From an uncultured Gammaproteobacteria bacterium (GTDB lineage Bacteria > Patescibacteriota > Patescibacteriia > Patescibacteriales > GWC2-42-12), in assembly GCA_964560005.1 (NCBI GenBank), contig CAZLKB010000002.1, forward strand, positions 64,381-128,380: DNA of 64,000 nt, given 5' to 3'. Shown here in pieces: positions 11,927-57,450 of this stretch. The notes under the pieces were generated by a model. That model worked only from the letters and a program-made list of their open reading frames with translations. It was not told the origin of the DNA and ran no database searches. Position 1 is the first letter of the stretch. Each line of letters begins with the position of its first letter. The translations under genes were made by a program, and so were the position numbers.

Positions 11927-11927
11927 A

Positions 11928-30906: not shown

Positions 30907-32751
30907 ATGAAAATTATTGAGTTTATTAAAAAAGAATTTAAACAGCATTATTTAGCCATTCTTTTTGCTGTTTTAGTCGGGCTGATTTATGTCAGCCCCT
31001 ACTTATTTTTTAGCTGGTCGTTAGGTAGTAAATATCAGGGGATACAGATGATTGCGACCGCCAACGAAGATGCCTACCTAGGGATTATGCAAGAAATAAT
31101 CGACGGCCATCCAGCAGTGGGCTCTTTTCCTTTTTTTGAGTATAAAGACAACTGGCCGTTAACTCCGCCGGTTGTCGCTTATTTCTACGCGTTGCCGGCG
31201 TTGCTGCTCAATATTTCAATAGTTAAAATTCTAATCTTAAGCAAGTTTATCCTGCCTTTTGTTTTGTTTATTTTAGTCTACTTTTTAATTAATAAGCTCA
31301 CGGAAAATTCGTGGTTGTTATCCAATAAGATGAATGCGATAGCCGGAGCAATGCTCGTAACTCTCGGTTATGATTTAGTGGATTTTCGCAGTCTGCTAAT
31401 TTTTTTAAAGGGCCAGATTACTCTAGGGGGTAAATTTTTAATTTGGGCCCGGCCGGTTAATCCCATTTTTGGGGCAATTTTTTTATTTTCATTTTTAATC
31501 TGCCTCTGGCTGCTTATTGAGAAATCAAAATACAGAAAAAGCTTAATATTTTTTTCTTCTTTGTTTTTAGCTTTGATGGTTTCCAGTTATTTTTTTAGCT
31601 GGGGCATGGCTTTATCGGTTTTATCCGTGGTAACTTTAATATATTTATTTAAGAAAGAATTTCAGGTCGTAAAAAATTCATTTTGGATCTTAGCTTGGGC
31701 GATTATTATGACTTTACCTTATTGGTATATATCTTTTAAGGCTAGCCAGAGCCCATGGTATCATGATTCCGTACTAAGGAGCGGGCTGTTTTATACCCAT
31801 TATCCCTTATTAAACCTATTAGTTTTGGCAACGTTGGCGGTTTATTTAATTATGGTTTTTGGTTCCATCTTTAAGATAGAAAAGTCAGCCGCTGATCGAA
31901 GGGGCCCCATAGCGCTTAATTTCCTCAAGCTTAAAAATTGGCATTGGTTTTGCCTGTCATTGCTTTTAGGCTCTGTTTGGGCATATAGTCAGCAGATAAT
32001 TACCGGCCTAACTATCTGGCCTTTTCATTTTGTCCAATACACCATTCCTTTATCAATGGTAGTAATCTGCGTTTTGTTTTATAATATCGTTAAAAAGTGG
32101 CGGCCGTTTTTATGGGCTTTGGTAATATCGGTTATGATTAGCTTGTCTTTTATTTTTGGCGTTATAGTCCAGGTAGAGACTTACAAAATGAACTTTGATA
32201 ATTATGCCAGACTGCAATCTTATAAACCGGTTTTTAACTGGCTGAATCAGCAAGAAAAAGACAGTGTGATTTTGGTAAGCGACCAAAATCAGGGCGCGAC
32301 CCCTTTGCCATTTAATTTCGGCACCCTGATATTGGCTCTCACCCATTGTAATGTTTATATAGATACTGACACCTTTTCTATAATGCCCACAGATCGGTTG
32401 CTTCATAATTATTTAGTTTTATTGCGCCTAAAGGGCGTAACCGCCCAGACAATTGAACCATACTTAAAAAACAACCAGTCCGAAGCCGAGAGCTATCTCT
32501 ATTCTAATTGGAAGGGCGTTTATAAGGTTAAGCAATTCCCGGATTTTACCGATGCCATACTTCCGGAGAGGCTGGAAGAATTACCCGAAGATTTTCGCCA
32601 ATTCATGAAACAAGATTTTTCTGAAGAGCTGAAGAAATATCGGCTGGATTATATTTTATCCGTAGGCACGTTGCCGGACGGCCTGCAAAGGGACTTGCCG
32701 AATTTAAAGAGGATTTTTCAGCATAAGGATATACAAATTTATAAATTTTAA
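30907..32751 (+). CDS. Large polytopic membrane protein with C-terminal soluble domain (GT-C-like candidate, function unknown)
   Basis: 614 aa. The first ~430 aa hold roughly a dozen hydrophobic helices, with an acidic first loop (ATANEDAYLGIMQEIIDGHP). The last ~190 aa are hydrophilic. No family motif recognised. Confidence 0.5.
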   Translation: MKIIEFIKKEFKQHYLAILFAVLVGLIYVSPYLFFSWSLGSKYQGIQMIATANEDAYLGIMQEIIDGHPAVGSFPFFEYKDNWPLTPPVVAYFYALPALLLNISIVKILILSKFILPFVLFILVYFLINKLTENSWLLSNKMNAIAGAMLVTLGYDLVDFRSLLIFLKGQITLGGKFLIWARPVNPIFGAIFLFSFLICLWLLIEKSKYRKSLIFFSSLFLALMVSSYFFSWGMALSVLSVVTLIYLFKKEFQVVKNSFWILAWAIIMTLPYWYISFKASQSPWYHDSVLRSGLFYTHYPLLNLLVLATLAVYLIMVFGSIFKIEKSAADRRGPIALNFLKLKNWHWFCLSLLLGSVWAYSQQIITGLTIWPFHFVQYTIPLSMVVICVLFYNIVKKWRPFLWALVISVMISLSFIFGVIVQVETYKMNFDNYARLQSYKPVFNWLNQQEKDSVILVSDQNQGATPLPFNFGTLILALTHCNVYIDTDTFSIMPTDRLLHNYLVLLRLKGVTAQTIEPYLKNNQSEAESYLYSNWKGVYKVKQFPDFTDAILPERLEELPEDFRQFMKQDFSEELKKYRLDYILSVGTLPDGLQRDLPNLKRIFQHKDIQIYKF

Positions 32752-36294: not shown

Positions 36295-37806
36295 TTACCT
36301 GCTAGTTAGGTTCAATTTTTTCGCTATCAGATCGGTTATAGGAAGTAGTTGGTCCTTTTTGGTTTTAAGCTGACCGCCGCCTTCAATATCCCAAAGTTGT
36401 ATTAAGTCAACATCAACGCTTTCAGAATGAATAGCCGTTAAAAAATTAACCAGGGAGTCTTCGTTGTGTTTGAAATTTTCCAATTGCCCCTTAACGATAA
36501 AAGGCAGTTGTTCTATAGCAACGCATTTTTTAACCATAGGCAGGCGGCTATAAAAAACGTCGCTAAAAACAATAACCGGTTTTTTTAGCTGAACAGCCTC
36601 CCAGCCGGCCGTGCCACTGATTGTGATGATTAATTTAGCCTTATTTATTAAAGAAAGGCCGTCAACCTCCGGTTTTATCAGTTTTACATTAGGTATTTTT
36701 TTAAGCTCTTTGTAAAAGCTTCTTGAACGATTGCCGTGCATGCTCGGATGTTCTTTGATATAGAGTTTAAAATTTAAGGGCAAAGAACGCGCCGTTTGCT
36801 TTATCAGCCAGAGCTGGTCTTTGTAGAAAGGGGCGAAAAGCAGAATGGCAATTTCCGGCTCTTGATGAATGGGATAGTAGGCGAAGTCTTCGCCAGGCGT
36901 CATTTCGTCATAAAGATCATTGTAGCCGATTAAAACCCTGATTTTCTTTTTAAAATTATCCCAGATTTGCACAAAGGGATTGATATTGCTATAGTCTTTT
37001 CGGTTCGGGTTGTTTAAATAGCGAATAATTGTTTTTAGGCGCCAAAAAATGGACCAGATTAATTTTTGAGGAAGCAGGAAATTAAATTGTCGGCGCCGAT
37101 TTATTGGCCTGGACTGAGGCAAATCGATTGAGCAATAAGGCTGAAGATTTTCGCGGAATTTTTTTAATTCCGCAGTGGCGCAGGCTTGTTTTTCGGGGAG
37201 CGAAACTTGGCCAGACTGGAGTCTTTCAAATAGGCCGTTGACGTAACTGAAATTAAAAGGATTATCGCTTAGAGTGTGTTTAATCTTAGTGCGGGTGTTG
37301 TGGATAATAAGAGTTTTTATATTTTTTTTCTTCGCCATTTCATATAAAAGCAGTCCGCTGATCGATCCGACAACAGAAAAAATAATTGCGTTAGGTTTTT
37401 CTTCGTCTAAGAATCTAATTATTGCTTTAGCCGTGACCTGGATAATTTTTATCATCTCCTCATGAGAGTAGGGGGGAGTATCGTGAGGCAGAGCCCTGAT
37501 GAATTGGCCATAGCGGATAATTCGGTCAAGCTCGAGGTAGGGCCATAAATTAGGCAGGCCGTATTCAGACTCTAATTTTTTGATGAATTTCCAGTTAAGA
37601 GTTTCGGTTTTATATCGGCCGATGATATCCTCATCTAATAGAATTTTACTAAAGCTGGGCGAGGTTTGATTTTTAATAAAATTATAACTTTCTCGCGTAA
37701 GAATGTAACCGCAAAATCCCGAGATATTATACTTTTGGTATAGTTGAGCGGCTAGGACGTATCCGATATAGGCAAAACGACGTTGTAAAAAAAAACAAAT
37801 TTTCAT
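36295..37806 (-). CDS. Capsule-synthesis (KpsC/KpsS-like, HP-motif) GT-B glycosyltransferase
   Basis: YIKEHPSMHG (HP motif) and TISGTAGWEAVQLKKPVIVFSDVFY resemble the KpsC/KpsS HP and S-x-x-G-F/W-E-A-L signatures. Paralog of 48106..49521. One of only two minus-strand genes in the locus. Confidence 0.6.
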   Translation of the reverse strand: MKICFFLQRRFAYIGYVLAAQLYQKYNISGFCGYILTRESYNFIKNQTSPSFSKILLDEDIIGRYKTETLNWKFIKKLESEYGLPNLWPYLELDRIIRYGQFIRALPHDTPPYSHEEMIKIIQVTAKAIIRFLDEEKPNAIIFSVVGSISGLLLYEMAKKKNIKTLIIHNTRTKIKHTLSDNPFNFSYVNGLFERLQSGQVSLPEKQACATAELKKFRENLQPYCSIDLPQSRPINRRRQFNFLLPQKLIWSIFWRLKTIIRYLNNPNRKDYSNINPFVQIWDNFKKKIRVLIGYNDLYDEMTPGEDFAYYPIHQEPEIAILLFAPFYKDQLWLIKQTARSLPLNFKLYIKEHPSMHGNRSRSFYKELKKIPNVKLIKPEVDGLSLINKAKLIITISGTAGWEAVQLKKPVIVFSDVFYSRLPMVKKCVAIEQLPFIVKGQLENFKHNEDSLVNFLTAIHSESVDVDLIQLWDIEGGGQLKTKKDQLLPITDLIAKKLNLTSR

Positions 37807-37840
37807 AAACTATAAAAATAATCTGGTAAATTATATTTTT

Positions 37841-37869
37841 AATATATCATTTAAAATCGCTAAGGTCAA
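37841..37869 (-). promoter_or_regulatory. Sigma70-like promoter for 36295..37806
   Basis: On the minus strand: TTGACC (plus 37864-37869), 17-nt spacer, TATATT (plus 37841-37846). Confidence 0.45.
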
Positions 37870-37886
37870 GTAAAATTAAATGACCG

Positions 37887-37925
37887 TTGACACCAGTTGA
37901 CACTTTTTGCTACTTCGATTAAAAT
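37887..37925 (+). promoter_or_regulatory. Promoter with tandem TTGACAC repeat; near-leaderless start for the HTH gene
   Basis: TTGACAC (37887-37893), cag, TTGACAC (37897-37903). From the second TTGACA, a 17-nt spacer leads to TAAAAT (37920-37925), and the ATG lies 8 nt further on at 37934. Confidence 0.6.
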
Positions 37926-37933
37926 AGCAGTAT

Positions 37934-38182
37934 ATGACTGAAGAAATAAAATCAAACGCGGTTTATACCACATCTGAAACGCAAAAATTGCTTAAGATAA
38001 GCAATAGCACGATTAAGCGCATGCTTAAGAAGGGCCTGATTAAAGCTAATAAAGTCGGCGGACAATATCGTATTATGGGTAAAGAAATTCTTCGCTTAGT
38101 CTCACCAGAGATTGAAAAACGAGCAATACAATCTTATTTAAATATTAAGCAGAAAGTCGTTGATAGGATAAATAAGTGGTAA
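37934..38182 (+). CDS. Small helix-turn-helix DNA-binding protein (excisionase/MerR-like HTH_17)
   Basis: 82 aa. YTTSETQKLLKISNSTIKRMLKKGLIKANKVGGQYRI matches the excisionase-family HTH pattern. Confidence 0.75.
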   Translation: MTEEIKSNAVYTTSETQKLLKISNSTIKRMLKKGLIKANKVGGQYRIMGKEILRLVSPEIEKRAIQSYLNIKQKVVDRINKW

Positions 38183-38185
38183 ATT

Positions 38186-39982
38186 GTGTATTTATTTATG
38201 GTGATAAAAAATAAATTTTTCAATTTTTCTAAAATTTTTTATCGGGCTTATTGGGGATATAAGAAACAAATTTTAGCCCTAACCGTTTTGGGATTTTTAA
38301 GCACCTTACTCGAGGGTATCGGCATCAATGCCGCTATCCCCATCTATTCTTTTATCACCGGTACCGGCAGTAAAGCTAACGATATAATTTCCAAGCTAAT
38401 CGTAAAGTTTTTTAATTTTTTTCATTTAAATTATAGCTTGAAATTTTTATTCATTTTTGTCTGTTTTTTGCTCATCTTCAGGGTGCTGATTCTGCTATTA
38501 TCGAATTATATTAAAATCAGAATTGCCGCAGTTTATGAAGAAAAAACCAGAATAAAGCTGTTTAAGCTTACGGCCGAAGCCAACTGGCAATTTCTTTTAA
38601 AGCAAAAATTGGGTTATCTGGATACAATTTTAATAACTAATGTTCAGTATGGCAGCCTGTTATTGCAATATATAAGCAACAGTTTAATGATAATTGCCAG
38701 TTTGGTAGTTTTCCTTTTAGTAGCTATAAATATTTCTTGGTTTATTACTCTTATCACCATAGCTTTGGGGGGCGTGGTGTTTTTTATTTTTAAGCCTTTT
38801 TTATATAAAACCAGATCTTTATCTCGGGAGCGGGAAAAAATCAACCGGCTGACCGCTCATCATGTCAATGAAAATATTTTAGGCATGAAAACCATTAAAG
38901 TAATGTCGGCCGGCGGCAATATTATCGATAAAGCCAGAGAATACTTTGAAAAACTAAGAGAGCTGGCTATTAAAACTACTTTTTTAAGCATAATTACCGA
39001 CGCCTTAATTCAGCCGATCGGTTTATTTTTTGTCTTTATTATTTTTGCCATTTCCTATAAAACCAACTCATTTAATTTCGCCGCCTTAGCCGCTATCATC
39101 TATTTGATTTCCAGGATATTCACTTATACTCAGCAGCTGCAAAGCACTCTTTATGCCGCGGTTACCGCTGTCCCGTATGTGCAAAAGATGCTTGATTATA
39201 GCGACGATGTATTGAAGCATAGGGAAATCGATAACGGCGCCTCTAGTTTTAAATTTGAAGACTCGCTGGAGTTAAAACATATCGGATTTAATTATGTTGA
39301 CGGAAAAAATGTTCTGGCCGATGTAAATTTTATTTTAAAAAAGGGAGAAATGGTGGGTTTGATCGGTCCGTCGGGCGCGGGAAAAACCACTATCGTTGAT
39401 ATAATGCTAAGGTTATTCAACCCGGTAAAAGGAGAAATTTTACTGGATGGAAAAAATATCGACGAAATCCATCTTGATGAATGGAGAAAAAACATCGGTT
39501 ATGTCTCGCAAGACATTTTTCTAAAAAACGATACCATCGCCAATAATATAAAATTTTATAGCGGATCGATAACCGATCAAAAAATGGAACAAGCCGCTAA
39601 AATGGCCAATATTGATGAGTTTATCCAAAGTTGTCCGGAAAAGTATGGCACGGTTATCGGCGAGCGAGGCTTACTTTTATCTGCCGGGCAAAGGCAAAGA
39701 ATAATTATCGCCAGAATTTTAGCCCGACAACCAAAAATTTTAATTCTTGATGAAGCCACCAGCGCGCTGGACAATGAGTCGGAAGTTCAAATCCAGGGAG
39801 TAATAGAAAATTTAAAGAATAAGGTTACCGTTTTATTGATTGCCCATCGTTTATCTACGGTGATGAATTGCACTAAACTATTGGTCTTGCAGGAGGGAGA
39901 AATTAAAGAGCAGGGTTCTCCCTTTGAATTGCTTAAGGACAAAAACTCCTATTTTTATAAAGTCAGTAATATTAGGCAATAA
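38186..39982 (+). CDS. ABC exporter, fused permease-ATPase (MsbA/PglK-like)
   Basis: Six-TM N-terminal half. Walker A GPSGAGKTT, signature LSAGQRQR, Walker B ILILDEATSALD. Start is the GTG at 38186 or the in-frame ATG at 38198. Confidence 0.9.
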   Translation: MYLFMVIKNKFFNFSKIFYRAYWGYKKQILALTVLGFLSTLLEGIGINAAIPIYSFITGTGSKANDIISKLIVKFFNFFHLNYSLKFLFIFVCFLLIFRVLILLLSNYIKIRIAAVYEEKTRIKLFKLTAEANWQFLLKQKLGYLDTILITNVQYGSLLLQYISNSLMIIASLVVFLLVAINISWFITLITIALGGVVFFIFKPFLYKTRSLSREREKINRLTAHHVNENILGMKTIKVMSAGGNIIDKAREYFEKLRELAIKTTFLSIITDALIQPIGLFFVFIIFAISYKTNSFNFAALAAIIYLISRIFTYTQQLQSTLYAAVTAVPYVQKMLDYSDDVLKHREIDNGASSFKFEDSLELKHIGFNYVDGKNVLADVNFILKKGEMVGLIGPSGAGKTTIVDIMLRLFNPVKGEILLDGKNIDEIHLDEWRKNIGYVSQDIFLKNDTIANNIKFYSGSITDQKMEQAAKMANIDEFIQSCPEKYGTVIGERGLLLSAGQRQRIIIARILARQPKILILDEATSALDNESEVQIQGVIENLKNKVTVLLIAHRLSTVMNCTKLLVLQEGEIKEQGSPFELLKDKNSYFYKVSNIRQ

Positions 39983-39994
39983 AATTACGTAATT

Positions 39995-40735
39995 ATGGAT
40001 TTTAATAATAAAAAATTAAAATTTTTAGCTGTGATTCCGGCTCGATCGGGCAGCAAGGGAATTAAAGGAAAAAATATTCGGCTGTTTGGCGGAAAATCTT
40101 TAATAGCTCATGCTATCGGCTGCGCAAAAAAATCTAAGTATATCAATCGTTTGATCGTATCAACTGATTCCAATGAAATTGCCGTGGTTTCAAAAAAATA
40201 TGGCGCCGAGGTTCCATTTTTGCGCCCGGCAAAATTAGCCAAAGACGACAGTCCGGTAGTGGAGTCGGTTCTGCATCTGTTATCTTTTTTGGGTAAAAAA
40301 GAAAATTATTTTCCGGATTTTTTAATTTTACTGCAAACCACTTCGCCCCTTAGAATGCCGGAAGATATAGACGGTGCGATTGAGTTATTGCTTAACGGCG
40401 GATGCAATGCGGTGGTTACCGTTTGCGCTACCGAACAGCTACTTTTTATTAAAGACGAGTTTAAGAGATTAAAATTGGTTTCTAAAAAAGATTTTATGAA
40501 AACATCCAATCGTCAGTATCTGCCGACTACTTACAAACTCGATGGTTCGATGGTCTATGCAATAAAGACTAAAGAATTTTTAAAAAGAAAGTCCTTTTTA
40601 AAGGGGAAATTGGCCGGTTATGTTATTCCGCGATGGCGTGCTTTGGATTTAGATGAACCGCAGGATTTTGTCACCGGAGAAATAATTTTTAAAAAATTTG
40701 AGCAAATTAATAAATTAATTAACACTTTTAAATAA
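39995..40735 (+). CDS. CMP-nonulosonic acid synthetase (acylneuraminate cytidylyltransferase family)
   Basis: AVIPARSGSKGIKGKNI and LLQTTSPLR motifs of the CTP_transf_3/NeuA family. Confidence 0.85.
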   Translation: MDFNNKKLKFLAVIPARSGSKGIKGKNIRLFGGKSLIAHAIGCAKKSKYINRLIVSTDSNEIAVVSKKYGAEVPFLRPAKLAKDDSPVVESVLHLLSFLGKKENYFPDFLILLQTTSPLRMPEDIDGAIELLLNGGCNAVVTVCATEQLLFIKDEFKRLKLVSKKDFMKTSNRQYLPTTYKLDGSMVYAIKTKEFLKRKSFLKGKLAGYVIPRWRALDLDEPQDFVTGEIIFKKFEQINKLINTFK

Positions 40736-40753
40736 AAATTAATTAAGAATTTT

Positions 40754-42067
40754 ATGCTAGTTAAAGAAGTTAAACAATTATTGGCTCGTCGTCATGATTT
40801 AATTCCCGGTGGCGCCCATACCTACTCAAAAGGTGATGATCAATTTCCCGCTAATGCACCCAAGGCGATCTTAAAAGGGAAAGGCTGCTATGTTTGGGGA
40901 GATGACGGGAAAAAATACTTGGATTGGTGTATGGGATTAAGAGCGGTTTCTTTAGGGCACTGCTATCCGGCGGTTAATAAAGCCGTTTTGGCACAAATGA
41001 ATGAAGGGACAAATTTTGGTCGTCCTCATATTAGCGAGTTTGAGCTAGCAGACTTTTTGACAAAAATTTTACCTAATGCGGAAATGGTTAAATTTACTAA
41101 AAATGGCTCAACGGCAACTTCAGCCGCTACTAAATTAGCGCGAGCCTATACCGGACGAAAATATATTGCGGTTTGTAGCAGTCATCCGTTTTTTAGCTAT
41201 GACGATTGGTTTATAGGCACAACTGCCTGTAGCGCGGGCATACCGGAAGAGATAAAAAAATTAACGCTGACTTTTCAATTTAATGACATTGCTAGCTTGG
41301 AAATTTTATTTAAAAAATATCCGGGCCAGATAGCCTGTGTAATTATGGAGGTGGTTACTACCGAAGAGCCGCGGGATAATTTTTTAATTAAGGCGCAAAA
41401 TTTAGTGAAAAAAATGGGTGCTGTTTTTATTCTAGATGAAATGATTACCGGTTTTAGATTTGACCTTAAAGGGGCACAATATCTCTATGGCCTGGAGCCG
41501 GATTTAACTACTTATGGAAAAAGCATCGCCAACGGATATTCATTGGCTGTTTTGGCGGGAAAAAAGAAAATAATGAAGCTTGGCGGATTGCAGCATAATA
41601 AAGAAAAAGTGTTTTTAATCTCAACTACTCATGGAGCGGAAACTATTGCGCTGGCGGCGGCTATGGCGACTATCAAAGAAATGAAGCTAAAAAGAGTGCA
41701 GACCAATTTTTGGAAAATGGGAGAAAAATTAAAAAGTGGTTTGGCCGGAATAATAAAAAATCATGGCTTGGAAAATTCGGTCAAAGTGATTGGGTTCGCT
41801 CCTAATTTAAGTATGAGTTTTACGGATAACCGAGGAGCCATATCGTTGGAGTTGAAGACGATTTTTTTGCAGGAGGTCATAAAACGAGGTATTCTCTTTC
41901 AAGGGTATTTCGCCATTTCATACTCGCATAAAGAAAAAGAAATTGCTAAGACCCTGTCGGTTATGGACGAAGCTCTAGCCGTTTACAAGAAAGCTTTTGC
42001 TTGCGGAGACTATAAAAAGTTTCTTACAGGAGAAGCGGTTAAGCCAGTTTTTAGGAAATATAATTAA
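40754..42067 (+). CDS. Class III PLP aminotransferase (glutamate-1-semialdehyde aminomutase-like)
   Basis: LIPGGAHTYSKG, FILDEMITGFR and TYGKSIANGY (PLP lysine region) resemble HemL-like enzymes. Paralog at 55458. Confidence 0.8.
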   Translation: MLVKEVKQLLARRHDLIPGGAHTYSKGDDQFPANAPKAILKGKGCYVWGDDGKKYLDWCMGLRAVSLGHCYPAVNKAVLAQMNEGTNFGRPHISEFELADFLTKILPNAEMVKFTKNGSTATSAATKLARAYTGRKYIAVCSSHPFFSYDDWFIGTTACSAGIPEEIKKLTLTFQFNDIASLEILFKKYPGQIACVIMEVVTTEEPRDNFLIKAQNLVKKMGAVFILDEMITGFRFDLKGAQYLYGLEPDLTTYGKSIANGYSLAVLAGKKKIMKLGGLQHNKEKVFLISTTHGAETIALAAAMATIKEMKLKRVQTNFWKMGEKLKSGLAGIIKNHGLENSVKVIGFAPNLSMSFTDNRGAISLELKTIFLQEVIKRGILFQGYFAISYSHKEKEIAKTLSVMDEALAVYKKAFACGDYKKFLTGEAVKPVFRKYN

Positions 42068-42079
42068 TTTAGAATAAAT

Positions 42080-42883
42080 ATGATTGGTGGAAAAATAAAA
42101 GCGGCTCTGGGTCAGATGAAAATTATTTGGCAAGACAAAAGGAAAAATAGCGACAAATGCGAAATTATGGTACAACGGGCTTCGCGAGCGAAAGCTGATG
42201 TCGTTATATTTCCGGAACTTACCTTAACCGGATTTACAATGAATGTAAGAAAGGCGGCTGAGGATGTTGGCCATAGCCCCACCGTATCATTTTTTAAAGG
42301 GTTAGCCATAAAATATAAAATTAATATTGTTTTCGGTGTTGCTTTTAAATTTAAAGATGGAAAAAGGGGGCGGAATATGGCAATGATGATTGATGCTTCA
42401 GGCAGACTGCGCGCTAAATATCAGAAGATCCACCCGTTTAGTTTTGCTCGAGAGGAAAAATATTACCTTCCAGGAGATAAATTATCTTTGTTCAAAATAA
42501 AAAGATTTAAATGCGCCTTGGCTATTTGTTATGATTTGCGTTTCCCCGGTCTTTTTGAGGCGCTGGCGAAGCATCGGCCGGACATCGTAATAATTATAGC
42601 CAATTGGCCGAAAGCTAGGATCAGGCATTGGCAAACTCTTTTATCCGCCAGGTCGCTTGATATGCAATCTTATATCATCGGAGTTAATCGGGTTGGCAAG
42701 GGAATAAATTTGGAATATAACGGATATTCAAGCGTTTATTCTTTTAAGGGAGAAAAATTGGTAGAATACAAAAATAAAGAAACGTTGGGTTTTGTTAATT
42801 TAGAAAAAAAAGCAGTTGACCATTATAGGCGCGTCTTTACTTCCTTGCGAGATAAAAGGCATTATTTATATTTATCATTATAA
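42080..42883 (+). CDS. Carbon-nitrogen hydrolase (nitrilase superfamily)
   Basis: E-K-C triad contexts FPELTLTGF, YQKIHPF and ALAICYDLRFP. Confidence 0.8.
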   Translation: MIGGKIKAALGQMKIIWQDKRKNSDKCEIMVQRASRAKADVVIFPELTLTGFTMNVRKAAEDVGHSPTVSFFKGLAIKYKINIVFGVAFKFKDGKRGRNMAMMIDASGRLRAKYQKIHPFSFAREEKYYLPGDKLSLFKIKRFKCALAICYDLRFPGLFEALAKHRPDIVIIIANWPKARIRHWQTLLSARSLDMQSYIIGVNRVGKGINLEYNGYSSVYSFKGEKLVEYKNKETLGFVNLEKKAVDHYRRVFTSLRDKRHYLYLSL

Positions 42884-42893
42884 AATTAACATT

Positions 42894-43895
42894 ATGAAAT
42901 TTTTGCAAATCGGTTTAGGATCAATGGGTAAAAGAAGAATCAGAAATTTATTATTTCATAAAATAAATAAGGATAATATTTATGGTTTTGATATTTCCTC
43001 TAAGCGATGTGATGAAGTCGCTAAAGAGTATGGGATTAAAACTATAAATAATTTCAATCAGGCGCTTAAAGAATTCAAGCCGGACGCTTTTATAATCTCC
43101 ACGCCGCCCGACTTGCACGAGCGATACTTTTTATATGCCGCCAAGCATAAATTGCATTTTTTTACGGAAGTACCGACCACCGATAAGGGTTATAAAGAAT
43201 TAATGCCGCTGTTAAATAAAAGCTTCGTAGCCGCGCCGTCCTGCACTTTCCGCTACGTTCCGGCGATAAAAAAGATCAAAGAATTGTTATATAAAGGCAC
43301 AATCGGAAAAGTGTTGTCTTTTAATCATTATTTAGGTCAGTATTTGCCCGATTGGCATCCTTATGAGGATTATCGCCGGATATATTTTGCCCAGAAAGAA
43401 ACCGGCGGTTGTCGTGAGTTTTTACCGCATGAGCTTGTTTGGCTGGCTGACATTTTTCGAAGCAAAACAGATAAAGCGATTGGAGTATATAATAAAATTT
43501 CTAAACTAAAAATTTCAGCCGATGATATTTATTGCGTTATCGTGCAATTTAAAAATGGCGTTATCGGCAACATGATGATTGATCTATTAAACAGAGCGGC
43601 ATCCAGGACTTTGCGCATTATCGGTAGTGAAGGAACTTTAGATTGGGACTGGTTGAATTATGAAATAAAATTGCATTTACCAGATAAAAAAGAAAAAATA
43701 ATAAAGTTACCAAACATAAAAAAACTTGCCCATTATAATACAACGGAAGACATATATAGAGCGGAAATGAAAGATTTTTTATTAGCAATTGCGAGGCGCA
43801 AAAAATTTCCGTATACTTTCAAGGAAAATTGGGGGATGTTAAAAGTTTTTTATAAAGTTGACGGTAACCACAAAAAGTATTTTGTTAAAGTTTAA
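42894..43895 (+). CDS. Gfo/Idh/MocA-family oxidoreductase
   Basis: I place the start at the ATG at 42894 (MKFLQIGLGSMGKRR, Rossmann N-terminus). The track start at 42816 overlaps the upstream gene. Confidence 0.75.
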   Translation: MKFLQIGLGSMGKRRIRNLLFHKINKDNIYGFDISSKRCDEVAKEYGIKTINNFNQALKEFKPDAFIISTPPDLHERYFLYAAKHKLHFFTEVPTTDKGYKELMPLLNKSFVAAPSCTFRYVPAIKKIKELLYKGTIGKVLSFNHYLGQYLPDWHPYEDYRRIYFAQKETGGCREFLPHELVWLADIFRSKTDKAIGVYNKISKLKISADDIYCVIVQFKNGVIGNMMIDLLNRAASRTLRIIGSEGTLDWDWLNYEIKLHLPDKKEKIIKLPNIKKLAHYNTTEDIYRAEMKDFLLAIARRKKFPYTFKENWGMLKVFYKVDGNHKKYFVKV

Positions 43896-43904
43896 TTTAA
43901 GTTT

Positions 43905-44945
43905 ATGACAAATTATGTTACTATAGGGAAACGTAAAATTGGATCCAGTTTTCCACCATTGGTAATAGCGGAAATTGGTATTAATCATGAAGGCAGCATA
44001 CTAAAAGCCAGGCGGATGATTAGGGACGCGTATTTAGCTGGCGCCGAATGTGTTAAATTCCAATGCCATATAGTGGAAGATGAAATGGTGCCGATTGCCA
44101 AAAAAATTATTCCCGGCCACGCCAAAGAATCTATCTGGGACATCATGAAAAAATGCGCCTTTTCCGAGAGACAAGACCGCGAGCTTAAAAAATACGTTGA
44201 AAGCCTGGGTATGATTTATTTGTCCACGCCTTTTTCCCGCGCCGGCGCTGATCGCCTGCAGAAGATGAAAGTTAAGGCTTTTAAAATCGGTTCAGGCGAA
44301 TGCAATAATTATCCTCTGGTTGAGCATATTGCCAAATTCGGCCGGCCGGTAATTCTAAGTACGGGCATGAATAATCTGGCATCCATAAAAAAGAGCTTGG
44401 CGATTATTGGAAAACATAAAATACCGTACGCCATTTTAAATTGCACCTCCATGTACCCGGCGCCGTATGAAAAAGTGCGTTTAGGCGTGATTTTAGAACT
44501 GGAAAAGGCCTTTCCTAAAGCTGTTATCGGTTTAAGCGACCATTCAATCGGTAATTACGCTTGTTTCGGGGCCGTGGCCTTAGGCGCGAGCATACTGGAA
44601 AAGCATTTTACCTCATCAAAAAAATGGCCGGGTCCGGATATCGCTTTGTCGATTAACCCCCGTGAATTAAAAGATTTAATTTTTGGGGTAAAAGCGGTTT
44701 GGCAATCTCTGGGCGGCGAAAAAAATATTTTGCCGGAAGAAGAAGGAATTATTAAATTCGCTTACGCCTGCGTGGTTTCAATCAAAGATATTAATAGGGG
44801 CGAGAAATTAAGCGAAAAAAATATTTGGGTTAAGCGACCGGGAACCGGAGAAATCAAAGCGATTGAATATGATAAAATTATAGGCAAACATGCTAGTAAA
44901 GATATAAAAAAAGACGTTCAGTTAAAATTCAAAGATATCTTATGA
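43905..44945 (+). CDS. neuB: N-acylneuraminate (nonulosonate) synthase, NeuB family with SAF domain (LegI-like)
   Basis: LVIAEIGINHEGS, KFQCH, KIGSGECNNYPL and LSDHS motifs. The C-terminal SAF-like tail ends in an ATGA overlap with neuC. Confidence 0.9.
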   Translation: MTNYVTIGKRKIGSSFPPLVIAEIGINHEGSILKARRMIRDAYLAGAECVKFQCHIVEDEMVPIAKKIIPGHAKESIWDIMKKCAFSERQDRELKKYVESLGMIYLSTPFSRAGADRLQKMKVKAFKIGSGECNNYPLVEHIAKFGRPVILSTGMNNLASIKKSLAIIGKHKIPYAILNCTSMYPAPYEKVRLGVILELEKAFPKAVIGLSDHSIGNYACFGAVALGASILEKHFTSSKKWPGPDIALSINPRELKDLIFGVKAVWQSLGGEKNILPEEEGIIKFAYACVVSIKDINRGEKLSEKNIWVKRPGTGEIKAIEYDKIIGKHASKDIKKDVQLKFKDIL

Positions 44946-46102
44946 AACAAAACCGAAAAAGAAAAATTTTATTCGTGACCGAACGCCGGGCTGATTATTC
45001 AAGATTAAAGCCGATTATGAAAGCCGTTCAGAGGAGCAAAAAACTTGAATTACAGCTGGTAGTTACGGGTAATCATTTACTTAAAAATTTTGGTGAAACT
45101 AAAAAAGTGGTTGACGCCGATAGCTTTAAAATTAACGCTATTTTTCCGATTTTTTACGAAAACGATCAGGATGATGCTATCCATATGGTAAAAGCCATGG
45201 GCAAGGCTTTAATCGGCCTGGCTGATATTTTTACCCGCTTAAAACCGGACATTGTGTTTTGCGGCTTTGATTTAGGTACTCATCTGGCAGCCGCTATCGC
45301 CGGCTGCCACCTTAATATCCATGTCGCCCATATCCAAGGCGGTGAAGTCAGCGGCACGATTGACGAAATTATTCGCCATGCTACCACAAAATTTTCCCAC
45401 ATTCATTTCGCCGCTACTGCCAAGAGCATTAAAAGAATAATAAAATTAGGCGAAAACCCTGAATATGTTTATAATGTTGGCAGCCCGAGCCTGGATACTA
45501 TTAAGAGTATAAAATATTATTCGAAGAAGAAGATAATCGAGAAATACGGCCTTGATCCAAAGAAAAAGCTGATAATTTTTTCCCAGCACCCGGTAACCAC
45601 GGAAGTTGATGAAGTAGGAAGTCAAATACAAAGCAGCATTAACGCCCTGAAGCGGGTTAATAAAAAATATGGCACGCAAGTTTTAGCCATTTATTCAAAT
45701 AATGACGCCGGCGGAAAGAGAATTATCCGCCAGTTGAAGCGGTCAGGTATAAAGGTGGTTCCGCATATAGTATATGAAGATTATTTGCGTCTATTTAAAG
45801 TGGCGGATCTATTGGTTGGAAATTCCAGCGCCGGTTTTCATGAAGCTCCCTCGTTCGGTTTGCCTACGGTAAATATCGGCACCAGGCAAAGGCTAAGGGA
45901 GCGTGGCGATAATATTATTGACGCAGATAATGATGAAAAAAAAATTATTAAAGCTATTACTAAGGGATTATTCGATAAGAAATTTATAAAAAAAGTTAAG
46001 GTCGGGAAAAATCCATACGACAACGGGATTACCTCGGAAAAAATTGTCAAGATTTTAGAAAATATTGATTTGCCGCCTATTCAAAAAAACATAACCTATT
46101 AA
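44942..46102 (+). CDS. neuC: UDP-N-acetylglucosamine 2-epimerase (hydrolysing), NeuC/LegG-like
   Basis: VTERRADYSRLKP and HIQGGEVSGTIDEIIRHATTKFSHIHF are signatures of hydrolysing NeuC-type epimerases. Confidence 0.9.
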   Translation: MKQNRKRKILFVTERRADYSRLKPIMKAVQRSKKLELQLVVTGNHLLKNFGETKKVVDADSFKINAIFPIFYENDQDDAIHMVKAMGKALIGLADIFTRLKPDIVFCGFDLGTHLAAAIAGCHLNIHVAHIQGGEVSGTIDEIIRHATTKFSHIHFAATAKSIKRIIKLGENPEYVYNVGSPSLDTIKSIKYYSKKKIIEKYGLDPKKKLIIFSQHPVTTEVDEVGSQIQSSINALKRVNKKYGTQVLAIYSNNDAGGKRIIRQLKRSGIKVVPHIVYEDYLRLFKVADLLVGNSSAGFHEAPSFGLPTVNIGTRQRLRERGDNIIDADNDEKKIIKAITKGLFDKKFIKKVKVGKNPYDNGITSEKIVKILENIDLPPIQKNITY

Positions 46103-46153
46103 ATAGCCGTTTTATTTAAAGATAAATCTAAGGGATGCTAACGCGATAAAGTT

Positions 46154-47044
46154 ATGAAGAAACAAAAGTTAAAAATTTTCCAGGAGTTGAAAGTATTGCT
46201 TTTAGGCGGGACCGGTTTTGTTGGTGAATATGTTATTAAGCAATTAATAAAAAATAGAAACTGTCGAATAGCGGTGGCGCATAATTCGCCGGGCACATTA
46301 ATAAAGATCAAAAATCTAGTATATGTAAAAATGGATTTAGCTAAACAGCCAGTCCGGTTGAAAAAACTGACCAACAGTACTGATATAATCGTGGTAATGA
46401 CGCAGCCGAATATCAAAATTATTGAAAATTTATTAGGTTCCATAAAAGCTAATTCGCAATTAAAAAAAATTGTCTATCTTTCTACTTTATTGCTGTATGG
46501 CGACTCGGTTACAAGACAAGATGAAACATCACCCTTAGAACCACAAGGAGATTATGAAATAGGGAAGTATTTGGAAGAGCAGAGGCTAAGAAATTTTTGC
46601 CTTAAGAATAAGACTAAGCTATGCATTATTAGGTTGGCCAATGTTTACGGCGATATCAAAAACAGGGGCATCATAGGCAAGATATTCCAGTCCATAAAGA
46701 ATCATCAGGTTTTGACGGTAAATAACCAGGGCCAAGCAATCAGGGATTACATTTTTGTGGAAGACGCGGCACGATTAATTAAATTTTTAATATTTTTTAA
46801 GCAAAAGGCAGGCAAAGAAACCTTTAACGTGTGCGCCTCCAGAGGCTATAGCGTTTTAGCATTAATAAAAAAAATTCAAAGGATTACCGGTCAGAAGGTC
46901 GGTTTTAAAAATGGCGGCCGAGTTAGAGAAAAAAAGAAAATTATTGGAGATAATAAAAAAATACTAAAATTATTAGGAGGTAAATTAATATATAATTTAG
47001 ATAGAGGTTTAAAGAAAACTTGCCATAATTTACTAAAATATTAA
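46154..47044 (+). CDS. NAD-dependent epimerase/dehydratase/reductase (SDR)
   Basis: Motif LLLGGTGFVGEYV and a YEIGK (YxxxK) catalytic motif. Confidence 0.7.
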   Translation: MKKQKLKIFQELKVLLLGGTGFVGEYVIKQLIKNRNCRIAVAHNSPGTLIKIKNLVYVKMDLAKQPVRLKKLTNSTDIIVVMTQPNIKIIENLLGSIKANSQLKKIVYLSTLLLYGDSVTRQDETSPLEPQGDYEIGKYLEEQRLRNFCLKNKTKLCIIRLANVYGDIKNRGIIGKIFQSIKNHQVLTVNNQGQAIRDYIFVEDAARLIKFLIFFKQKAGKETFNVCASRGYSVLALIKKIQRITGQKVGFKNGGRVREKKKIIGDNKKILKLLGGKLIYNLDRGLKKTCHNLLKY

Positions 47045-47052
47045 TTAAATTT

Positions 47053-48093
47053 ATGATTAATCAATTCAAAAATAAAAGAATTCTGGTGACCGGCGCTACC
47101 GGCTCGATCGGTTCGGTGATTGTTAAGGAGCTCTTAGAATTTGAACCATATCAGGTCCGGGTCTTTAGCCGCGACGAGACCAAGCAATTTGAATTACACC
47201 ACGAAATCGGACCGTCGCTGCTGGTAAATTATTTGATTGGCGACACCAGGGATAAAGAGCGCCTAAATTTGGCGATGGAGAATATCGATATTGTCTTTCA
47301 CGTCGCTGCTCTGAAACATGTCGTCGCTTGCGAGAAAAATCCTTTTGAAGCGATTAAAACCAACATTCAGGGGACGCAGAATGTAATCGACTGCGCTTAT
47401 GCCAATAAAGTCGATAAAGTCATTATGATTTCTACGGACAAAGCTACCGATCCGACCAATGTCATGGGCTGCACCAAGCTTTTGGCGGAAAAATTAATTT
47501 TAGCCAGCTTTCTTTATAAGGGAGATAAAAAGACCAAGTTTTGTTGCGTTCGGTTCGGCAATGTTATCGGTTCCAGAGGCTCGGTTGTGCCTTTGTTCAT
47601 AAATCAATTAAAGCGCCGCCAGCCGATTACCATTACTGACCCTAAAATGACAAGATTTATTATGTCGATTCATCAGGCGGTTCAGTTGGTTTTTAAATCG
47701 GTTGAACTAATGAGGAACCGAGAAATTTTTGTGCTGAAGATGCCAGTGGTCAATTTAAAAGATTTGTCCCGGGCGGTCATTGAAGTATATCAGGAAAAAA
47801 ATAAAGTTAAACAGAAAGTAGAAACGAAAATTATCGGCAAGAAACAGGGTGAGCGTATTCATGAGAGGTTATTAACGGCGGAAGAATCCGCCGGCGCTTT
47901 GGAAACGGCCGAGATGTATATTATTTTACCCAACCTGTTGGATCCGGATTCCGGTTACGAGCCTGTTAAAGGTATGTGTTATCCTAAAGCCAAACGAGCA
48001 AAAGTGGGCGATTATTCATCAAAAAATGTAAAAAAAATGTCTGTAAACAAGATAAAAGAAATGCTAAAGTCTAACGGTGATTTGAATTTTTAA
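47053..48093 (+). CDS. UDP-sugar 4,6-dehydratase, CapD/PseB/PglF family
   Basis: ILVTGATGSIGS, SRDETKQ, HVAALKHV, STDKATDP and RFGNVIGSRGSVVP. Paralog of pseB at 51138. Confidence 0.85.
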   Translation: MINQFKNKRILVTGATGSIGSVIVKELLEFEPYQVRVFSRDETKQFELHHEIGPSLLVNYLIGDTRDKERLNLAMENIDIVFHVAALKHVVACEKNPFEAIKTNIQGTQNVIDCAYANKVDKVIMISTDKATDPTNVMGCTKLLAEKLILASFLYKGDKKTKFCCVRFGNVIGSRGSVVPLFINQLKRRQPITITDPKMTRFIMSIHQAVQLVFKSVELMRNREIFVLKMPVVNLKDLSRAVIEVYQEKNKVKQKVETKIIGKKQGERIHERLLTAEESAGALETAEMYIILPNLLDPDSGYEPVKGMCYPKAKRAKVGDYSSKNVKKMSVNKIKEMLKSNGDLNF

Positions 48094-48105
48094 CCTTTGA
48101 TAAAT

Positions 48106-52127: not shown

Positions 52128-52137
52128 TAGATACATT

Positions 52138-53253: not shown

Positions 53254-53788
53254 AAAATTTAAAAATAATTCAGCTTTAATTATTGGTAAAAGAATATATT
53301 TAAAAATATTGAAGGAGGAAAACGCCACCGCCGATTACTCCGGCTGGCTGAATGACGCGGAAGTAAACAAATACTTAGTAACTAAAAATGCAACTATTCA
53401 AGAGCTTAAAAATTATATCGCTGAAAAATTAGCTGACGATAATTGTCTGTTTTTTGGTATTTTTATTAAGTCTAACCATTGGCATATCGGCAATTTAAAA
53501 TTAGAGACGATCGATTGGCGGAAAAAATCAGCCGACTTCGGCATTTTAATCGGGGATAAAAATTATTGGGGTAAAGGCCTGGCAACCGAGGCTACAAAAT
53601 TAATAGTTGATTTTGCTTTCAATAAATTAAAATTGGTCATATTGGAGCTTGGCGTTATAGCAGATAATTTGGTTGCCTTAAAAGTTTATGAAAAAATCGG
53701 TTTTAAAGTTGATAAAATAAATAAAGAAGAGATTAGACATAATGGCAGGTCTATGGATCAAATAATCATGACTATTAAAAATGAATAA
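53234..53788 (+). CDS. GNAT N-acetyltransferase (PseH-like)
   Basis: I place the start at the ATG at 53234 (MTEKII); the track start is 53177. RimL-type GNAT core IGDKNYWGKGLATEA. Position after pseB-pseC matches pseH. Confidence 0.7.
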   Translation: MTEKIIKKFKNNSALIIGKRIYLKILKEENATADYSGWLNDAEVNKYLVTKNATIQELKNYIAEKLADDNCLFFGIFIKSNHWHIGNLKLETIDWRKKSADFGILIGDKNYWGKGLATEATKLIVDFAFNKLKLVILELGVIADNLVALKVYEKIGFKVDKINKEEIRHNGRSMDQIIMTIKNE

Positions 53789-56783: not shown

Positions 56784-56791
56784 TAAATTTT

Positions 56792-57406: not shown

Positions 57407-57450
57407 TCATTTAACACTGCGGTCTCTGCCGCAGGGTAATTATCGTCACT

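Follow-up and report, generated by a model that had tools for sequence, protein, structure and literature searches.

To our knowledge, few nonulosonic acid (NulO) transferases are known outside flagellin glycosylation, and KpsS1 (GT118) is the sole one of the modified GT-B fold with biochemical proof. KpsS1 of Acinetobacter baumannii KL2 is a retaining Pse5Ac7Ac pseudaminyltransferase (Walklett et al. 2024, as cited in PMC12887879), a role predicted earlier by Kenyon et al. 2014/2015 (PMC4487303). The idea that a PF05159 protein encoded beside a NulO module is a NulO transferase has been in print since 2015 (PMC4487303). WbbB and KrkA are retaining, double-displacement Kdo transferases; besides a (K/R)xHP motif, they have two Ser residues that bind the phosphate and one Glu that binds the ribose (PMC12887879). 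An HP motif is also carried by GT-B sialyltransferases (PMC9587256), and Tanf_01245 / TFUB4_00887 of Tannerella forsythia (BFO_1060 family) are genetically implicated as transferases of Pse and Leg derivatives (PMC5420450). As for nonulosonic acids in Patescibacteria, a literature search found nothing.

In the 64,000-nucleotide stretch of DNA analysed here (the window), two open reading frames, A on the minus and B on the plus strand, are present where the original prediction had placed them (Table 1), and a family HMM run on the window reports these two members only. According to BLASTP they share 26% identity over about 370 aa (E 2e-26), and on sequence grounds they are true paralogues. Translation confirms that KEHP, (S/T)G(T/S)xGWEA, and KP..F(S/G)..(F/W)Y are common to both, the third block being KPVIVFSDVFY in A and KPALIFGSAWY in B. 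For gene B, TTG at 48097 is an alternative start. The two genes lie in a very large surface-sugar locus of an uncultured, ultra-small patescibacterium and most likely encode transferases that place NulO, nine-carbon sugars resembling sialic acid, on a surface glycan; this is a known enzyme type, in a large uncharacterised clade.

Table 1. Positions of genes A and B, of their motifs, and of the neighbouring features in the window
Feature	Coordinates	Strand	Details and basis
Paralogue A	36295..37806	minus	503 aa ORF; PF05159, GT118-like predicted CMP-nonulosonate glycosyltransferase, KpsS1-like
A Glu68	37603..37605	minus	N-terminal-domain Glu, candidate acceptor-activating base (inference); 238/240 conserved
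A H314-Q-E-P-E318	36853..36867	minus	QxxxD-variant motif, candidate catalytic Glu318; translation, family conservation, alignment
A K351-E-H353-P354	36745..36756	minus	(K/R)xHP CMP-phosphate motif; translation, alignment; role from PMC9587256, PMC12887879
A S397-G-T-A-G-W-E403-A	36595..36618	minus	Phosphate/ribose-binding block; translation; Ser-Ser and Glu roles from PMC12887879
Paralogue B	48106..49521	plus	471 aa ORF; KpsS1-like predicted CMP-nonulosonate (probably CMP-Pse) glycosyltransferase
B Glu81	48346..48348	plus	Counterpart of A Glu68; 120/120 in B family
B H282-Y-Q-P-E286	48949..48963	plus	QxxxD-variant motif, candidate catalytic Glu286; translation, alignment
B K319-E-H321-P322	49060..49071	plus	Translation, alignment, family conservation
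B T373-G-S-V-G-W-E379-A	49222..49245	plus	Translation, alignment, family conservation
Polytopic membrane protein	30907..32751	plus	614 aa, at least 7 TM segments; convergent neighbour of A
Divergent intergenic region, A/ABC exporter	37807..38185		379 bp; outward-facing sigma-70-like sites
ABC exporter	38186..39982	plus	Fused TMD-NBD, HepA/MsbA/PglK-like, type IV; conserved partner of A and B; Pfam
NulO module 1	39995..48093	plus	NeuC/NeuB type, Leg- or Neu-like: CMP-transferase, class-III aminotransferase, CN-hydrolase, GFO oxidoreductase, NeuB, NeuC, SDR, PseB-like dehydratase; family profile scores
NulO module 2	51138..58509	plus	Pseudaminic-acid type: PseB, PseC, GNAT, AKR, CMP-transferase, class-III aminotransferase, DUF218, NeuB/PseI-like; family profile scores

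Capsule_synth (PF05159) scores are 33.5 bits for A and 39.8 bits for B, both above the gathering cutoff of 20, with a match that spans profile positions 176-267 of 310 only. The AF2 models (pLDDT 89.4 and 88.6, respectively) begin with an alpha/beta domain at the N-terminus, continue with a long insert of helices (about residues 187-293 in A), and end in a C-terminal Rossmann domain, so that both proteins are predicted to adopt the modified GT-B fold, in which a helical subdomain separates two alpha/beta domains. Among solved structures KpsC is the nearest in sequence, and the conserved blocks of A and B match HP, S(S/T)xxGFEAL, and KP..FG..Y of the solved KpsC structures column for column. 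The membership in a KpsC/KpsS-like family that had been claimed for the pair is thus supported by profile, sequence, and predicted fold. The clade containing A and B comprises 4,611 clusters at 50% identity (E<=1e-30), mostly from Patescibacteria, and members of the A and B subfamilies are labelled hypothetical in most sources.

According to Foldseek, the best global fit of A is KpsC (TM 0.50-0.58), and for B WbbB has the highest TM (0.39) among the 50 PDB matches listed. When ranked by E-value, generic GT-B proteins (UDP-GlcNAc 2-epimerases) come first for both. This ranking, a weak Pfam Epimerase_2 match for A (E 0.0018), and a Pse module in which no PseG is recognisable would suit enzymes that process nucleotide sugars and are not transferases, e.g., a replacement of the PseG UDP-sugar hydrolase or a 2-epimerase-like protein. 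Such a function is very improbable, however, as superposition on the epimerases is poor (TM 0.24-0.35, rmsd 15-19 Å) and KpsC and WbbB fit better by TM, the CMP-type motifs (KxHP, S/T-G-T, and GWE) are complete and conserved, both proteins are homologous to the proven transferase KpsS1, and A often lies beside NeuC-type modules that already have a hydrolysing epimerase.

PF05159 and KpsC as the best PDB sequence match would also agree with beta-Kdo (octulosonic) transferases, and in tblastn Bacillus genes carrying the annotation CDP-glycerol glycerophosphotransferase family are faintly similar (E 3e-4), as might be expected of TagF-like CDP-glycerol or CDP-ribitol polyol-phosphate transferases. 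Either identity is hardly credible. Regarding the former, neither KdsA (DAHP_synth_1) nor the rest of a Kdo pathway is found in the window, where the only synthases are of NeuB type, and the Asp of QxxxD, invariant in known Kdo transferases (PMC9587256, PMC12887879), is Glu in A and B. Regarding the latter, the original prediction was to fall if the proteins belonged to the CDP-glycerol glycerophosphotransferase family or another non-CMP-sugar family and HP was not conserved; PF04464 (TagF/TagB) gives no match at E<=1 for A or B, and HP is kept. Moreover, KpsS1, a Pse transferase, is a much nearer relative of both proteins and the closest one that has been characterised.

The A. baumannii protein used for this comparison (P0390) is probably KpsS1 itself, judging from its Tyr-Glu132 fingerprint, its place after the Pse module, and its LipB/KpsS-family naming. 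Its ORF (L164:11263-12705) comes after PseB-PseC-CMP-transferase-NeuB and has Tyr131-Glu132, as published for KpsS1 (PMC12887879). BLASTP identity to this protein is 36% over 165 aa for A (E 3e-23) and 25% over 269 aa for B (E 4e-14). In hhalign the family profile aligns with KpsS1 over 334 columns (99.6%, E 5.4e-24), versus 77 columns with E. coli KpsC-N and 87 with KpsS, both in the CMP half only; A and B thus appear much closer to GT118 than to the Kdo transferases. KpsS1 Glu132, the proposed general base (PMC12887879), aligns in hhalign to Ser144 of A, a Ser in the family consensus as well, so that the acceptor half-site of A is unlike that of KpsS1; the N-terminal 120 residues give no reliable alignment with KpsS1, a forced global alignment of the N-terminal domains having zero confidence.

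As for the candidate catalytic residues, Glu318 of A is invariant both in the family alignment (240/240) and among diverse representatives (136/136), and Asp never occurs there. It is followed by K351 (239/240), E403 and E68 (238/240 each), H353 (233/240), and P354 (229/240), the last two values agreeing with the conserved His-Pro motif originally proposed. Where Kdo transferases have QxxxD, the family of A and B has (H/Q/N)xxPE. Glu318 corresponds to the position of the nucleophilic Asp, since it aligns in HMMER with Asp165 of KpsC-C (6mgd), Glu precedes His by 35 residues in A, B, and KpsS1 and Asp precedes it by 34 in both KpsC modules, the beta-strand context and KpsS1 agree, and the Gln of QxxxD is kept in 55 of 120 A-family members. 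Glu instead of Asp at this position suggests a sequence mark that sets the NulO-associated members examined apart from Kdo transferases.

Compared with the residues that define the GT99/GT107/GT118/GT140 superfamily, both proteins have KEHP for (K/R)xHP, and SGTAGWE or TGSVGWE for the phosphate Ser/Thr pair and the ribose Glu. HxxPE placed 35 residues before K-x-H, typical of GT118, is found in both as well, whereas both lack the GT118 YE-motif Glu132 and the QxxxD of GT107/GT99/GT140 with its Asp about 34 residues before HP. The HP histidine is absent from 23 of the 136 diverse representatives, so it may be dispensable in the wider family. Such His-less (H353N) forms might have been the second copies in B-B tandems, an explanation rejected because both copies carry the full signature.

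The window contains two NeuB genes (43905 and 57451) and two CTP_transf_3 genes (39995 and 54677), which agrees with the two synthases and two CMP-transferases announced for it. In module 1 NeuC_NnaA scores 387.6 (cutoff 235.9) and NeuB 371, below its cutoff of 399.65, and in module 2 PseB and PseC score 433.8 (cutoff 407.75) and 437.9 (cutoff 423.5). The exporter reaches 325 bits for HepA, 302 for MsbA, and 220 for PglK in NCBIfam, all under the cutoffs. Profile searches of the window ORFs of at least 150 aa report no Maf, GT29/38/42/52/80-type, or KdsA family, in line with the earlier statement that neither Maf nor a classical sialyltransferase is encoded. With neither these nor a Kdo pathway found in the window, A and B have no competing NulO transferase candidate there.

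Orthologue loci show strong co-occurrence with NulO genes, the check that had been asked for. Among the A-centred loci whose upstream flank reaches 8 kb or more, NulO-pathway genes are present in 45/47 and NeuB or a CMP-transferase in 37/47; among B-centred loci, NulO genes are present in 60/80. A tight layout recurs, in which A points away from the ABC exporter, and the exporter is followed in its own direction by one B or two. In 49 of 61 loci the exporter precedes B in the same direction at a distance of up to 2 kb, and PseB is the first gene downstream of B in 27 of 43. B-B tandems occupy 19 of the 80 B-centred loci, with all catalytic residues kept in both copies, and in three loci (L041, L051, and L080) A and B lie together beside a single Pse module. 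On a Rhizobium plasmid, a B-like gene is accompanied by NeuB, NeuC, CMP-NulO synthetase, and ABC transporter genes; a homologue in Rhizobium sp. WL3 is WP_147885253.1.

The notion of one paralogue per nonulosonic acid did not hold up: in loci of 20 kb or more paralogue number and NeuB number are unlinked, with, e.g., one paralogue and two NeuB in 3 loci and two paralogues and one NeuB in 6, so "one enzyme per sugar" is unproven. Together with the tandems, the exporter upstream of B, and the A-B pairs beside a single Pse module, this independence would fit an initiator and an extender, A and B (and B-B pairs elsewhere) using identical or mixed CMP-NulO donors one after the other to give a lipid-bound NulO oligomer or primer for recognition by the adjacent ABC exporter, much as KpsS and two KpsC modules build the group 2 poly-Kdo linker (PMC12887879, PMC10148158). 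This arrangement is unlikely, however. The exporter is a fused MsbA/PglK/HepA-type half-transporter and not KpsMT-like, the many GT2/GT4 enzymes of the window and its polyprenyl-phosphate phosphoglycosyltransferase point to a complex heteroglycan instead of a NulO homopolymer, and the 10-kb flanks of the loci may conceal second pathways.

Regarding the donors, a preference for module type is seen for B only, toward the Pse module. Because B orthologues lie directly upstream of PseB, B most likely uses a CMP-Pse derivative in this window. The NeuC/NeuB-type (Leg-like) sugar is the most likely donor of A, although weakly so: members of the A subfamily occur beside both module types, which makes the assignment one of adjacency, and the A subclades carry no donor-type signal, their tracking of NulO module type having been rejected (Mann-Whitney p 0.24, Fisher p 0.43). 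Of the original prediction of two NulO transferases, the family, the His-Pro motif, and NulO co-occurrence are supported, with the KpsS1 kinship as an additional finding, and the allocation of one enzyme to each sugar is not.

Gene A is, as had been noted, the sole internal minus-strand gene of the window, which has 57 plus and 2 minus genes, the other one (62233-63582) lying at the window end. The local inversion or later insertion proposed to explain this is contradicted by the divergent orientation of A to the exporter/NulO block, which is conserved across Patescibacteria (genes upstream of A are divergent in a ratio of 179:39 across loci). The GC content of A is equal to the mean (0.392 in both cases), and in codon usage it lies within 0.5 SD in distance. 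The skew of the coding strand is -0.123 for A and +0.123 for the other genes, i.e., the plus-strand GC skew of A is the same as that of its neighbours and is equilibrated. No inverted repeats flank A, and inverted-repeat/terminator scans gave AT-rich chance-level matches only. Given this divergence, native composition, equilibrated skew, and lack of flanking repeats, the minus-strand orientation of A represents the ancestral state, divergent from the exporter operon. The sigma-70-like sites between the two genes are at 37897-37925 on the plus strand (11/12 match) and 37869-37841 on the minus strand (10/12, TG), their number not exceeding the shuffle expectation. On the other side of A, the polytopic protein of 30907..32751 has no Pfam, NCBIfam, or PDB match, and its homologue is located 3' of A in 24 of 55 loci; it is a possible GT-C-like partner of A, tentatively included in the system.

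Overall, A and B probably transfer CMP-NulO from the two NeuB pathways to a lipid-linked glycan that is then exported by the ABC transporter. The observed basis comprises KpsS1 homology, the full set of CMP-binding residues, the invariant Glu, and linkage to NulO and exporter genes. As soluble or peripheral cytoplasmic enzymes of the KpsS1/KpsS/KpsC/WbbB superfamily (modified GT-B with an inserted helical subdomain), they would receive CMP-activated donors from the two adjacent pathways and add NulO to the lipid-linked glycan, which the exporter encoded between them would carry across the membrane. Double displacement may be expected by analogy with retaining KpsS1 and with the covalent Asp-sugar adduct of GT99/GT107/GT140, Glu318 (A) or Glu286 (B) being the putative nucleophile and His353 or His321 presumably aiding the departure of the CMP phosphate. 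As a guess, E68 or E81 of the N-terminal domain would be the base that activates the acceptor hydroxyl.

A broader proposal, namely, a mainly patescibacterial pathway (A, B, the exporter, and the 30907-32751 protein, with relatives in Alphaproteobacteria) in which two to three GT118-like enzymes with a Glu nucleophile make a glycan with two different NulOs, possibly with KpsS/KpsC-like NulO-NulO linkages, using an acceptor-activating base relocated to E68/E81, is doubtful. If true, the clade of about 4,600 clusters would merit its own CAZy family and offer a handle on surface decoration by ultra-small episymbionts. The clade shares the HxxPE/KxH signature of KpsS1 and is tied to Pse- and Leg/Neu-type pathways and to the ABC exporter, which provides an annotation rule for "hypothetical" genes in thousands of uncultured genomes. 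Such bacteria, ultra-small episymbionts, also appear to devote resources to surface sugars resembling sialic acid, with a possible bearing on contact with host cells.

In comparison with known systems, GT52 NST/Lst, GT80 PmST1, GT38 polysialyltransferases, and Maf/FlmG share CMP-activated NulO donors with the proposed activity; the GT-B sialyltransferase, Maf, and FlmG families have no sequence-family match in A, B, or the rest of the window, and Maf/FlmG have folds unrelated to A and B and act on flagellin. The T. forsythia enzymes are likewise HP-motif proteins for terminal NulO, with weak similarity in the same C-terminal region (NCBIfam BFO_1060, 29.0 and 15.3 bits, far under the 200-bit cutoff), but a TagB-like domain is described for them and they serve general O-glycosylation in Bacteroidota. 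[quoted passage not shown] KpsC (GT107) and KpsS belong to the same Pfam family, align at HP, S(S/T)xxG(F/W)EA, and KP..FG..Y, and also combine several paralogous modules with an ABC exporter; they differ in aligning over 77-87 columns, in QxxxD versus (H/Q)xxPE, in their Kdo donor (probably a 9-carbon NulO for A and B), and in exporter ABC class. KpsS1 differs in its identity of only about 22% to A and B, in K-D-H-K instead of K-E-H-P, in the YE-motif Glu132, which is Ser in A and B, where Glu68/81 is invariant instead, and in its diderm Wzx/Wzy capsule locus, the partner of A and B being an ABC exporter in Patescibacteria. Nevertheless, KpsS1 is likewise a PF05159 member whose gene adjoins a Pse module, is homologous across the helical subdomain and the C-terminal domain, has the S-T-x-G-(Y/W)-E-A and KP..G..FY blocks, and shares HxxPE with its Glu 35 residues ahead of K-x-H (H299FHPE303...H338).

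The original prediction took two KpsC/KpsS-like HP-motif proteins, A and B (see table), as paralogues and as the best candidates for transferring two nonulosonic acids (NulOs). The ORFs and all quoted motifs are confirmed at the checked coordinates, and BLASTP supports the paralogy (26% identity over ~370 aa, E 2e-26), while a family HMM search of the window gives no third member. Both proteins also pass the proposed scan for PF05159 Capsule_synth (33.5 bits for A and 39.8 for B, Pfam gathering score 20), with matches confined to positions 176-267 of the 310 in the profile. Neither protein has an NCBIfam model of its own (best BFO_1060_trans, 29 and 15 bits, cutoff 200). The top PDB sequence match is KpsC (GT107; E 3.5e-5 for A and 8e-4 for B, improving to 9.5e-10 with a 60-sequence family profile), and WbbB (GT99) is matched faintly. 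In these alignments HP falls onto HP and SGTAGWEA/TGSVGWEA onto S(S/T)xxGFEAL.

Features of the window and the A. baumannii ORF compared with A and B
Feature	Coordinates	Strand	Remarks
A	36295..37806	-	503 aa ORF
B	48106..49521	+	471 aa ORF
ABC exporter	38186..39982	+	fused TMD-NBD
NulO module 1	39995-48093	+	NeuC/NeuB-type; NeuC_NnaA 387.6 vs cutoff 235.9
NulO module 2	51138-58509	+	Pse pathway; PseB 433.8 vs 407.75, PseC 437.9 vs 423.5
Class-III aminotransferases	40754-42067, 55458-56783	+	one per NulO module; resemble glutamate-1-semialdehyde aminomutase
GFO-family gene	42816-43895	+	listed TTG start
Radical-SAM genes	7450-8757, 9793-11208, 11814-13328, 25338-26855, 33842-35341, 49656-51053	+	five B12-binding, one plain
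Polytopic membrane protein	30907-32751	+	614 aa, at least 7 hydrophobic segments
Polyprenyl-phosphate phosphoglycosyltransferase	62233-63582	-	
KpsS1 candidate ORF	L164:11263-12705		480 aa; after PseB-PseC-CMP-transferase-NeuB (A. baumannii)

AF2 predicts both structures with confidence (pLDDT 89.4 and 88.6, pTM 0.89 and 0.88 for A and B, respectively): a small alpha/beta domain at the N-terminus is followed by a long insert of helices and then by a Rossmann domain at the C-terminus, a predicted layout that is the modified GT-B known from WbbB and KpsC (PMC12887879). Generic GT-B 2-epimerases lead the Foldseek E-values, which might suggest nucleotide-sugar processing, yet they superpose poorly (TM 0.24-0.35, rmsd 15-19 Å), and such a role is very improbable. 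The best global fit of A is KpsC (TM 0.50-0.58, rmsd 7-11 Å); for B, WbbB has the top TM among the matches listed (0.39).

According to tblastn against a plasmid collection, A and B have matches in two A. baumannii chromosomes that are wrongly filed there. The ORF found there, present on at least 1,000 contigs, is treated as KpsS1 because it follows a Pse module, carries 'LipB/KpsS family' among its source names, and has Tyr131-Glu132, the KpsS1 fingerprint published in PMC12887879. Judged by sequence, the CHARACTERISED relative of A and B is KpsS1 (GT118). BLASTP of KpsS1 gives 36% over 165 aa with A (E 3e-23), 25% over 269 aa with B (E 4e-14) and 29% over 98 aa with E. coli KpsS (E 3e-7), and hhalign aligns the family profile with KpsS1 over 334 columns (99.6%, E 5.4e-24), compared with 77 for KpsC-N and 87 for KpsS. 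As a rival reading, an initiator/extender series of the KpsS/KpsC kind is unlikely.

GT99, GT107 and GT140 enzymes use double displacement, with the invariant Asp of QxxxD forming a covalent sugar adduct (PMC12887879, PMC9587256). In these families the His of (K/R)xHP touches the CMP phosphate (PMC9587256, PMC12887879), a Ser pair and a Glu grip phosphate and ribose, and a Glu on the N-terminal side activates the acceptor (PMC12887879). At the segment equivalent to QxxxD, the A and B families (120 orthologues each) have a beta-strand followed by (H/Q/N)-x-x-P-E, the first position being H in 64 and Q in 55 A-family sequences, and H in 60, N in 20 and Q in 16 of the B family. The Glu is present in 240/240, with the His 35 residues later (34 from D to H in each E. 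coli KpsC module, 38 in KpsS), and is kept in all 136 diverse full-length family representatives (P0241-P0389); HMMER places it on Asp165 of KpsC-C (6mgd). The Asp-to-Glu change thus also occurs outside the window, in the proven Pse transferase KpsS1, whose motif and spacing agree (H299-F-H-P-E303 ... H338), and by alignment it sets the NulO-associated proteins examined apart from Kdo transferases. Kdo or TagF-like activity is scarcely credible. The CMP-binding set is complete and conserved (K351 239/240, H353 233/240, E403 238/240). By analogy with KpsS1 and the Kdo enzymes, retention would proceed through an adduct on Glu318 (A) or Glu286 (B), and the candidate base is an N-terminal Glu, E68 in A and E81 in B (238/240). 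As for variants, the HP His is Asn, often with the Pro missing, in 23 of the 136 representatives; the second copy of a B-B tandem is not such a form, both copies keeping the catalytic signature.

Both orthologue families are large, mostly annotated 'hypothetical', and found entirely in MAGs, the taxon, where titled, being Patescibacteria/CPR; a profile search returns 12,074 clusters (50% identity) at E<=1e-3, of which 4,611 reach E<=1e-30. Co-occurrence, which the original prediction proposed to check for neuB, is borne out in 80 A-centred loci from GTDB species representatives: where at least 8 kb lies 5' of A, 45/47 loci have NulO-pathway genes and 37/47 NeuB or a CMP-transferase. The commonest nearest upstream neighbours of A are a CMP-transferase (14), the ABC exporter (7) and PseB (7). 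Among 80 B-centred loci from metagenome contigs, 49/61 have an exporter on the same strand as B and no more than 2 kb upstream of it. Downstream, the gene recognised first is PseB in 27/43, and NeuC lies there in only 2/43; B-B tandems, with the signature intact in each copy, occur in 19/80. The core module is A, divergent from an exporter that is followed by one or two B genes, within NulO genes.

It is likely that A and B are cytoplasmic KpsS1-type CMP-NulO glycosyltransferases, which would load NulO from CMP-NulO onto a lipid-linked glycan that the neighbouring ABC exporter would then flip. The transferase part of the original claim therefore stands, but its pairing with two NulOs does not gain from the paralogue number, which does not follow the number of NeuB genes in loci of 20 kb or more. 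A subclades have no preference for NeuC-type vs PseB-type modules (15 vs 20; Fisher p 0.43). B is probably a Pse transferase, according to gene position across loci, and A probably uses a NeuC/NeuB-type sugar, to judge from adjacency alone.

In five loci (L112, L113, L120, L132, L137) the gene standing in A's place, next to the exporter-B pair or divergent from it, belongs to a third PF05159-like subfamily, which is more divergent (~160 bits with the A-family HMM) and begins the motif with Gln. A B-like gene (509 aa; LHYQPE, KEHP, TGSVGWD) has a culturable alphaproteobacterial host, Rhizobium sp. WL3 (plasmid NZ_CP042825.1, 613206-634507, L165), where the order is ABC-2 transporter, several hypothetical genes of ~450-510 aa including the B-like one, NeuB, KpsF, NeuC and CMP-NulO synthetase. 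The C-terminal region of A is faintly similar (E 3e-4 to 8e-4, ~33%, 120 aa) to Bacillus cereus-group plasmid genes (CP046512.1, NZ_CP142671.1, NZ_CP085410.1) annotated 'spore coat protein' or 'CDP-glycerol glycerophosphotransferase family protein', which may be mis-annotated HP-motif transferases tied to spore-surface glycans.

Regarding orientation, the strand count (57 plus, 2 minus) agrees that A is the only internal strand break, but the local inversion or later insertion proposed for it is contradicted. Recognised genes upstream of A are divergent in 179 cases vs 39 across the phylum; GC of A (0.392) equals the window mean, and its codon-usage distance is ordinary (0.202 vs 0.185 +/- 0.036). 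On its coding strand A has a GC skew of -0.123 (+0.123 +/- 0.072 for plus-strand genes), so its plus-strand skew matches the neighbours, unlike a recently flipped segment. No inverted repeats flank A, and its nearest-relative contigs are common to B. The 379-bp spacer between A and the exporter has outward-facing promoter-like sites, their number no greater than chance. A and the exporter gene are an ancestral pair in divergent orientation.

When all ORFs of 150 aa or more are scanned with Pfam and NCBIfam models, the window emerges as a glycan locus of more than 60 kb, with many GT2 and GT4 and two PMT_2 GT-C proteins; as originally noted, Maf or a known sialyltransferase is not among them, nor are GT29/38/42/52/80 or KdsA families reported. 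Module 2 also has a PseH-like GNAT, a CMP-transferase and a PseI-like NeuB, and no recognisable PseG, in whose stead stand an aldo-keto reductase, a class-III aminotransferase and a DUF218 protein. Because the order aminotransferase-DUF218-NeuB recurs in other Patescibacteria loci (L083, L086, L097, L108, L138), DUF218 might stand in for PseG or modify the sugar. Module 1 additionally encodes a CN-hydrolase and a GFO oxidoreductase; the latter overlaps the upstream CN-hydrolase gene by 68 bp, and its true start is probably downstream, since the Pfam match begins at residue 28. These two and the class-III aminotransferases (NF004856 592 bits, over cutoff 486, in module 1) probably tailor NulO N-acyl side chains. 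The radical-SAM set, whose best NCBIfam likeness is to P-/C-methyltransferase-type B12-rSAM (all under cutoff), suggests that sugars are C-methylated in an unusual way or otherwise tailored by radical chemistry. The polytopic membrane protein ('NEDAY' in the first loop, C-terminal soluble domain of ~180 aa) matches nothing in Pfam, NCBIfam or PDB by sequence; in 24/55 loci its homologue is a conserved convergent neighbour of the A-family gene, and it lies upstream of the exporter-B pair in L083, L090, L093 and L094, and it may be a GT-C-like enzyme working after export.

In comparison with known systems, A. baumannii KpsS1, described in PMC12887879 as a retaining Pse5Ac7Ac transferase, and T. 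forsythia Tanf_01245/TFUB4_00887 (PMC5420450) are the two literature precedents for NulO transferases with an HP motif, and NulO addition by PF05159 proteins adjoining NulO modules was already generalised by Kenyon et al. in 2015 (PMC4487303). KpsS1 differs in having K-D-H-K, with no Pro, where A and B have KEHP, and Glu132, the base proposed for it, corresponds in the alignment to Ser144 in A, the first 120 residues giving no dependable alignment with the family. A and B are thus an already known kind of enzyme, rightly called; the novelty lies in the phylum, in the module's linkage to an exporter, in how large the unannotated clade is and in recognising that HxxPE takes the place of QxxxD.
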